Of a DNA stretch of 11,924 nt, positions 7,143 through 8,526 are shown in pieces. Where the stretch lies: IMG/VR virus record IMGVR_UViG_2526164647_000012, one strand, 5' to 3'. The notes under the pieces were generated by a model, which was not told the origin of the DNA, did not search any database, and saw only the letters and a program-made list of their open reading frames with translations. This DNA is from a virus (lineage: Duplodnaviria; Heunggongvirae; Uroviricota; Caudoviricetes). A program made the position numbers and the translations under genes. Position 1 is the stretch's first letter, and each line of letters begins with the position of its first letter.

Positions 7143-8420
7143 TGGAGTGACCCCCATATATCCCTTACCGACGCAAAAATCCGCACCCTCAAGCCTTCTG
7201 ATAAACCCTTTAAAGTCTCCGATTCTCACGGTCTGTATCTGCTGGTCAAGCCGGGTGGCTCCCGCCACTGGTATCTCAAATACCGTATTAGCGGTAAAGA
7301 ATCCCGCATTGCGCTGGGTGCCTATCCAGCCATCTCCCTGTCTGATGCGCGACAGCAACGTGAAGGTATCCGTAAAATGCTGGCGCTGAATATCAACCCG
7401 GTACAGCAGCGGGCTGCTGAACGTGGCTCACGAACACCGGAGAAAGTTTTTAAAAACATGGCGCTGGCGTGACATAAAAGTAACAGGAAATGGTCGCAGA
7501 ACACCGCCGACCGTCTGCTTGCCAGCCTGAACAATCACATCTTTCCGGTCATCGGGAACCTACCTGTATCAGAACTTAAACCCCGTCATTTCATTGACCT
7601 GCTGAAAGGGATCGAGGAAAAAGGTCTGCTGGAGGTTGCGTCCCGCACACGGCAGCACCTGAGTAACATAATGCGCCATGCGGTCCATCAGGAGTTAATC
7701 GATACGAACCCTGCAGCAAACCTTGGCGGCGTGACCACACCTCCTGTCAGACGGCACTATCCTGCCCTGCCGCTGGAGCGGCTGCCTGAACTGCTTGAAC
7801 GTATTGGGGCATATCATCAGGGCCGTGAACTGACCCGGCATGCCGTTCTGCTGATGCTGCATGTGTTCATTCGCTCCAGTGAACTGCGTTTCGCCCGCTG
7901 GTCAGAGATTGATTTCACAAACCGAGTCTGGACGATACCCGCGACGCGAGAACCCATTATTGGCGTGCGTTATTCCGGCCGCGGGGCAAAAATGCGAATG
8001 CCGCATATCGTCCCCCTCTCAGAACAGTCCATCGCCATTCTGAAACAGATTAAGGATATCACCGGTAATAATGAACTGATCTTCCCCGGCGACCATAACC
8101 CGTATAAGCCAATGTGTGAAAACACGGTCAATAAGGCACTGCGGGTGATGGGTTACGACACGAAAAAGGATATCTGCGGTCACGGCTTCCGGGCAATGGC
8201 ATGCAGTGCGCTGATGGAATCGGGTTTATGGGCAAAGGACGCAGTAGAACGCCAGATGAGTCATCAGGAGCGCAATACCGTGCGCATGGCTTATATTCAT
8301 AAGGCAGAGCACCTGGAAGCCCGCAAAGCGATGATGCAGTGGTGGTCGGATTATCTGGAAGCATGCCGAGAATCTTATGCACCGCCTTATACAATTGGTA
8401 AAAATAAGTTTATCCCATAG
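7143..8420 (+). pseudogene. int: P4-type integrase of an asn-tRNA island (HPI-like int), inactivated by in-frame TGA at 7470-7472 and lacking a start codon
   Basis: Single frame reads ISLTDAKIRTLKPSDKPFKVSDSHGLYLLVKPGGSRHWYLKYRISGKE...ALA*HKSNRKWSQNTADRLL... then continues as ORF 7671-8420 with catalytic domain; no ATG/GTG/TTG at the N-terminus (ATA where ATG expected). Confidence 0.85.
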
Positions 8421-8526
8421 TATACTAACGAATCCCACACTCTGGCAAATTACCACCACCTCTACAGGAGGTGGTTCTATATAGACTTTTATCAACTTCA
8501 TGACGAAAAACACCTATTTGAAGTGG

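Follow-up and report, generated by a model that had tools for sequence, protein, structure and literature searches.

The integrase of the yersiniabactin high-pathogenicity island (HPI), the truncated alleles of its gene intB, and the IS-driven deletions of Shigella have all been well described already. In ICEKp1, the asn tRNA gene is followed, 161 bp downstream, by an int gene nearly identical to the one analyzed herein, and the two are co-transcribed from the tRNA promoter (PMC13023037). Within E. coli, the spread of the HPI is thought to proceed by homologous recombination, according to work cited in PMC2617782. In addition, a truncated intB lacking bp 124-470 was described in E. coli and Enterobacter by Paauw et al. 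(2010; PMC2801613), and the phylogeny in the same article includes an intB sequence of one S. flexneri isolate. This phylogenetic use was all that our literature search returned for the stump at asnT of S. flexneri considered below, of which no published description was found.

Herein, we compared with these systems the asnT-associated integrase gene of a window, i.e., the whole stretch of 11,924 nucleotides that was analyzed. With a probability of roughly 0.9, we regard the feature as the left-end stump of a yersiniabactin HPI at asnT, in which the integrase is dead and from which the rest of the island was removed by an IS911-linked deletion, the remaining DNA being now neutral debris.

Identity and Extent of the Integrase Gene

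The features at the left end of the locus, extending from asnT to the end of the island sequence, were assigned as follows:

6921..6996, + strand, asnT, tRNA-Asn(GTT), called by ARAGORN and the Rfam tRNA model
6997..7157, + strand, spacer between asnT and int (int leader), 161 bp, read from the sequence
7158..8420, + strand, HPI integrase (int/intB) pseudogene, 420 codons plus stop, assigned by DNA identity, the CDS of strain PAR, and Pfam
8421..8518, + strand, HPI int-ybtS intergenic spacer, 98 bp, assigned by alignment to strain PAR, where ybtS follows
8455..8475, no strand assigned, spacer hairpin with an 8-bp stem (ACCACCTC / GAGGTGGT)

Translation of 7143-8420 gave 426 codons with a sole internal stop at 7470-7472, which accords with the original prediction of a frame of about 425 codons broken solely by a TGA at that site. 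Since an in-frame TAA is located upstream at 7140-7142, int proper was taken to be 7158-8420, and the first five codons of the longer frame lie outside the gene; the annotated intact CDS of E. coli strain PAR likewise maps onto 7158-8420. When the stop was replaced by Trp and codon 1 by Met, Pfam assigned Arm-DNA-bind_3 (residues 3-87), Phage_int_M (98-191), and Phage_integrase (224-384) to the repaired protein. Such arm-binding, core-binding, and catalytic domains within one polypeptide constitute the layout of a P4-type (tRNA-associated) tyrosine recombinase, and these domains, together with the 161-bp gap to asnT, bore out the predicted P4-type integrase just 3' of asnT. The unrepaired gene did not qualify as a functional P4-type recombinase, its frame being interrupted by TGA at codon 105 and its codon 1 being ATA.

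A megablast search of the window against 5,426 complete E. coli genomes revealed that positions 6900-8519 were 99.4-99.5% identical at the DNA level to HPI-bearing E. coli chromosomes (matches of 1620-2689 bp), and that int in the best E. coli match was followed by ybtS, ybtX, ybtQ, ybtP, ybtA, and irp2. Since a 1.6-kb stretch is identical to such a degree to a known gene with its flanks, the resemblance goes far beyond chance, and since the best match continues into the ybtS-to-irp2 genes, the gene is, as judged from the sequence, the integrase of the yersiniabactin HPI itself and more than a relative of it. The assignment made before, an integrase of an asn-associated island, was thus right as to an integrase beside asnT, and it is refined here to the HPI int gene, the residual spacer being that between int and ybtS of the HPI. 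The window gene resembles the HPI integrases of Yersinia and E. coli and those of ICEEc1 and ICEKp1 in this DNA identity, the three-domain layout, the 161-bp gap to the asn tRNA gene, the 17-bp core, and the downstream spacer, whereas it differs from them in having the stop at codon 105, V101M, and the ATA start, and in the lack of ybt cargo behind it.

At the 3' end of asnT, from 6981 onward, lies the 17-bp HPI attachment core CCAGTCAGAGGAGCCAA. A core search of the whole 11.9-kb window gave this one copy, the second attachment core (attR) being absent; amn and yeeN come directly afterwards in related S. flexneri loci. The gap of 161 bp between asnT and int is equal to that reported for ICEKp1, and a GGAG sequence is found at 7144-7147, 10 nt ahead of the first codon of int. 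By analogy with ICEKp1, the int stump is probably still transcribed via read-through from the asnT promoter.

Other arrangements at asn tRNA genes were observed in E. coli. In strains C8 and 5CRE51, the HPI is located at the asn tRNA gene by nac, not at asnT, and in strain VG38-53E1 a 423-aa paralogous integrase is found beside the asn tRNA gene next to yeeO, followed by clbS of the colibactin island.

The match to the intact HPI runs from upstream of asnT to 8518, and IS911 begins at 8519, in keeping with the earlier count of 98 bp of island sequence between int and IS911. These 98 bp are the start of the 193-bp int-ybtS spacer and the sole remnant of the island beyond int. The palindrome noticed before at 8455-8475 is present with its 8-bp stem, into which the loop-proximal change of C to T at 8463 turns the 9-bp stem of four intact E. 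coli HPIs; its fold z-score was modest (-2.2). This hairpin was rejected as an intrinsic terminator, as it has no T-run and a terminator scan returned 0 sites. It is a part of the normal HPI spacer, to which we attach no function.

Coding Lesions of the Integrase Gene

Between asnT and the IS911 joint (1523 bp), the window differed from E. coli strain 5CRE51 at seven nucleotides, comprising three coding changes, two synonymous changes, and two non-coding changes:

7125, G to A, non-coding
7158..7160, + strand, first codon ATA in place of the family ATG, G to A at 7160 (codon 1, ATG to ATA, M1I)
7458..7460, + strand, codon 101, GTG to ATG (V101M), G to A at 7458
7470..7472, + strand, codon 105, TGG to TGA (W105*), G to A at 7472, premature stop
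8315, A to G, synonymous
8384, A to G, synonymous
8463, C to T, non-coding, in the spacer hairpin

Accordingly, the int protein of the window showed three amino-acid differences from the intact E. coli protein WP_000059622.1 of strain 5CRE51, namely M1I, V101M, and W105*, each of which is a G to A change. We compared these positions with 79 homologue loci, read out of 80 fetched, from species-representative genomes (71-100% identity). Residue 105 was Trp and the start codon was ATG in all 79 homologues, and residue 101 was Val in 76, Leu in two, and Ala in one, Met being absent; the three changes are thus all derived. The alignment to intact integrases confirmed that TGA stands in the place of a family Trp, and ATA where ATG is expected, at a position matched exactly to the intact relatives. 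An intact homologue with a non-Trp residue or a stop at position 105 was absent among the 79. V101M is the third coding change and had been missed in the original prediction.

A 54-nt probe bearing the TGA found an exact match in none of 1874 complete E. coli genomes, all of which gave 53/54 identity, and the mismatch was the G of TGG in the intact E. coli copies that we read directly. A 65-nt probe spanning the start matched the ATA allele exactly in at least 842 of 2211 complete E. coli genomes, where the gene is otherwise intact, and the ATA-started int of strain PAR is given in RefSeq as an intact CDS. Every fetched allele that mismatched the latter probe had ATG (JJ1886, C8, 5CRE51, and the colibactin-island integrase of VG38-53E1). 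A start loss private to this strain was ruled out by the ATA of those E. coli genomes, and ATA as the native start of the gene family was ruled out by the ATG of all 79 representatives and of several E. coli alleles. From these comparisons, ATA is best seen as a derived yet old and common polymorphism of the E. coli HPI pool that was inherited by the Shigella lineage.

Initiation at AUA in E. coli amounts to 1-2% of that at AUG, with a range of 0.02-3% across constructs (bioRxiv 10.1101/063800), and the ATA-started HPI integrases of E. coli are thus probably poorly translated. The ATA weakens int, but alone it cannot be a ground for calling ATA-started genes dead. Of the earlier claim that int had been killed by the TGA together with the loss of the start codon, the former part is upheld, while the ATA is not assignable as a killing lesion here. 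An AUA-started product would end after 104 residues, i.e., past the arm-binding domain. The ATA start, the lineage-specific stop at codon 105, and also V101M indicate that int is non-functional as an integrase.

The 249-Residue Open Reading Frame and the Truncated intB Allele

Downstream of the premature stop, one further open reading frame is found within the gene:

7671..8420, + strand, residual 249-aa ORF starting from internal Met172, catalytic domain only, often reported by gene callers

The identical 249-aa product has been recorded in 15,988 blocks, the majority of which derive from the E. coli allele lacking bp 124-470. Nine E. coli loci that we read (L002, L003, and L005-L011) carry this 347-bp deletion of int, which corresponds to 7281-7627 of the window, and have an intact ybt cluster downstream. 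The truncated intB of Paauw et al. is therefore similar to the window gene in being an inactivated copy of the same gene that leaves the identical C-terminal ORF. It differs in its lesion, a 347-bp deletion, in its ATG start (ATG TTC in the nine loci read), and in its intact ybt cluster, whereas in the window the lesion is a nonsense point mutation and the ybt genes are missing. Since the deletion allele and the TGA allele both leave the ORF at 7671-8420, the 249-aa "protein" is recorded so widely.

The IS911 Joint and the Extent of the Deletion

To the right of the island remnant, the following features fill the window to its end:

8519..9767, - strand, IS911 at the deletion joint, assigned by its inverted repeats and by matches to an annotated IS911-family transposase
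9768..10257, + strand, internal shiA fragment, nucleotides 624-1113 by the numbering of the K-12 gene, 97.6% identical to the shiA region of K-12
10258..11520, + strand, IS600 inserted in shiA, assigned by its inverted repeats, the annotation of matches, and six S. flexneri loci
11521..11924, no strand assigned, ISSfl3 (IS66 family) fragment abutting IS600, 99.8% identity to annotated ISSfl3 transposase genes

The 27-nt inverted repeats of IS911, with the terminal sequence TGAAGTGG..., are found at 8519-8545 and 9741-9767, about 1.25 kb apart, and minus-strand genes with transposase domains (HTH_Tnp_1 and rve) were called at related loci. The left flank of IS911 is the HPI spacer (...CACCTATT), and its right flank (GGTACTGGG...) begins at nucleotide 624 of K-12 shiA. 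A 3-bp target-site duplication of IS911 was absent, the flanks being ATT and GGT, and in other genomes the loci from which these two flanks stem are widely separated. With such unlike 3-bp flanks, IS911 is not a simple insertion, and the missing duplication is as expected after an IS-linked deletion.

Downstream of int, the ybt, irp, and fyuA genes were absent in the window; the island ends at 8518 and is followed by IS911, the shiA fragment, IS600, and ISSfl3. The spacer-IS911 joint and the absence of ybt genes, viewed against the strains with an intact island, agree with the prediction that the cargo is gone and IS911 stands in its place. In K-12, asnT and nucleotide 624 of shiA are about 9.6 kb apart, with yeeJ, the yeeL pseudogene, and the beginning of shiA in between. 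Since the spacer is connected through IS911 to this very nucleotide, the deletion exceeds the island, as far as the sequences tell, and took yeeJ, yeeL, and the 5' 623 nt of shiA in addition to the ybt cargo. The remaining shiA fragment is bounded by IS911 on the left and by IS600 on the right.

This joint resembles the IS-mediated deletions of Shigella in having an IS with unlike flanks, no target duplication, and a multi-kilobase loss, as well as in being embedded in a region dense in IS911, IS600, and ISSfl3 with the neighboring shiA broken. We found no difference in principle from other such deletions, and the lost DNA here includes a siderophore island common in E. coli.

Six other S. flexneri loci have IS600 simply inserted into shiA, with an ATG target duplication, and shiA resumes after it. 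The right flank of IS600 in the window is the ISSfl3 fragment, not shiA, which represents either a further rearrangement in the strain or an assembly join.

Occurrence of the Stump in Other Assemblies

Sister loci were searched for with the exact product of the shiA fragment beside IS911; of the 152 blocks obtained, we read the 24 with the longest contigs, and ten loci were returned. Codons 101-105 read ATG-GCG-CTG-GCG-TGA in nine of the ten returned loci. In seven of these nine, the ATA was confirmed by an exact anchor, the other two leaving the anchor unmatched with a nearby difference, and the exact joint between the int side and IS911 was found by string match in eight, the ninth (L103) being a gap-rich assembly. 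Since the TGA-carrying assemblies, complete chromosomes included, differ from the window in IS insertions, the nine are independent genomes. The accessions CP044152 (AR-0425, serotype 2a) and CP026799 (NCTC 9728, serotype 5a) are named Shigella flexneri in the literature (PMC9455713), as is LR213452 (AUSMDU00008355), the closest complete genome to a serotype 1c cluster (PMC9376355). The window was 99.75-99.94% identical to S. flexneri chromosomes over 7.7 kb, and this identity together with its content of IS911, IS600, and ISSfl3 places its origin in S. flexneri. On the basis of these assemblies, the TGA is a fixed lineage marker that the window shares with nine others, three of which are those named S. 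flexneri in papers.

In a further assembly, L098 (GCA_900457225.1), the IS911-shiA'-IS600 block is kept, and an ipaH-like gene with LRR_TTSS and NEL domains is located to the left of IS911, with no int stump. This assembly was placed with the S. flexneri set solely through the shared shiA fragment and flanks, and its layout suggests a further IS911-linked rearrangement.

Neighboring Elements

Upstream of asnT, the window holds a lambdoid prophage remnant at 324-4612 on the minus strand, which is upstream of serU and includes the following features:

324-633, four-gene tRNA cluster (Gly-tcc, Thr-tgt, Lys-ttt, and Met-cat), downstream of the antiterminator gene
832-1575, antiterminator Q
1512-1877, RusA
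1878-2936, DUF968 protein
3384-3596, hok toxin ORF, accompanied by sok antitoxin RNA (Rfam match at 3534-3709)

A second integrase gene, of the phage type, is found at 4773-5812 on the plus strand beside serU (5840-5929, minus strand) and is split into two ORFs. The corresponding gene in S. flexneri L101 encodes 346 aa, and in comparison an A-run near 5432 is shorter by one A in the window, which is either a frameshift or a homopolymer sequencing error.

Discussion

In the history that we propose, the E. coli ancestor from which Shigella flexneri arose would once have carried an HPI at asnT. The presumed remnant of this island consists of int together with the 161-bp leader in front of it, the 98 bp of the int-ybtS spacer behind it, and the attachment core in the 3' end of asnT. 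Via an IS911 copy, the DNA between the spacer and the middle of shiA, including the ybt/irp/fyuA cargo, would then have been deleted, possibly through IS911 intramolecular transposition or through recombination with a second, direct IS911 copy in shiA. We infer from the 98-bp spacer alone that the lineage formerly held the full ybt cargo, and the ancestor could have received a partial island. As neither a second attachment site nor cargo is present in the window, there is nothing nearby for the integrase to excise. Moreover, if the HPI spreads by homologous recombination, int need not be under selection, which fits the occurrence of several independent int lesions.

Two of the alternatives to an inert stump concern the TGA. 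The TGA at 7470-7472 is a single-base G to A difference from all E. coli copies examined, as would be the case for a sequencing or assembly error in an integrase gene intact but for its unusual start. Such an error is contradicted by the nine other assemblies carrying TGA, V101M, and ATA, among them complete chromosomes with differing IS insertions, and the chance of it is virtually nil; the possibility of an error at 7470, raised along with the original prediction, was thereby rejected. Given a genuine stop, a full-length integrase might still be produced at a low level by initiation at AUA and by read-through of UGA-C by tRNA-Trp, and might be active at further asn tRNA sites or elements. 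According to a study reportedly published by Poole et al. in 1995, termination at UGA is weakest in E. coli when the next base is C. Decoding by tRNA-Trp would restore the wild-type residue, and the GGAG at its distance of 10 nt from the ATA, the initiation of about 1-2% supported by AUA, and the acceptance of an ATA start by RefSeq in strain PAR would all be compatible with some translation; in addition, the 315 codons past the stop are unchanged in protein relative to the intact copies. Nevertheless, initiation and read-through, each inefficient, would together leave roughly 1e-4 or less of the normal output, the locus retains neither attR nor cargo, and a recent inactivation would account just as well for the unaltered codons downstream. 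Of the three coding changes, two affect residues that do not vary among the 79 homologues, and the third introduces a Met that none of these has, which fits relaxed selection over constraint. A recoding signal was absent at the Rfam gathering thresholds, where the matches in the window were tRNAs and sok only. We thus consider full-length production very unlikely. If traces of it did occur, the stump could be left as a very weak recombinase able to act on other asn-tRNA-borne elements of S. flexneri. On a broader scale, the ATA found in about 38% of the HPI copies of E. coli might have been selected as a "throttle" on integrase expression and be no defect. We find this scenario hardly credible.

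Two further readings assign a role to a part of the stump. The 249-aa ORF at 7671-8420 is open and ATG-initiated, and its identical product has been called in a very large number of genomes (the 15,988 blocks mentioned above), as might be expected of a functional truncated recombinase made by internal initiation. These calls, however, are a mechanical consequence of unrelated lesions further upstream, namely the TGA here and the deletion of bp 124-470 in E. coli, and the product would possess no arm-binding domain and only a minor part of the core-binding one. Its ATG is preceded by a weak GAG only, and partner attachment sites for such a recombinase are gone from the window, so that this reading is highly improbable. 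Alternatively, selection may have kept the stump for the 3' processing or termination of the asnT transcript, whose own terminator would have been displaced by the island and then deleted. The stump is indeed conserved in S. flexneri genomes assigned to serotypes 2a and 5a in the literature and in a third named strain, and a hairpin is present in the retained spacer. However, a stretch can stay conserved over so short a time in the absence of selection, the hairpin lacks a T-run and was not called as a terminator, and the different sequence to the left of IS911 in GCA_900457225.1 suggests that the junction can be rearranged. Retention by selection is accordingly very improbable in our view, and we prefer a neutral left-end remnant of the HPI with a dead integrase.

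For annotators, the neutral remnant means that the 249-aa "integrase" ORF is a by-product of upstream lesions and no gene. The commonness of ATA among the supposedly intact E. coli HPI integrases also deserves their note, as a large share of these "intact" integrases may be barely translated. In the S. flexneri lineage, the three SNPs and the two IS911 joints (CACCTATT joined to TGAAGTGG, and CACTTCA joined to GGTACTGG) provide clean lineage markers. As to the history of the organism, the locus suggests that the ancestor of S. flexneri, which has no such island here, once carried an HPI at asnT and lost it, along with the adhesin gene yeeJ and part of shiA, in one IS911-linked deletion, which fits the well-known IS-driven genome reduction in Shigella and represents ordinary genome decay.
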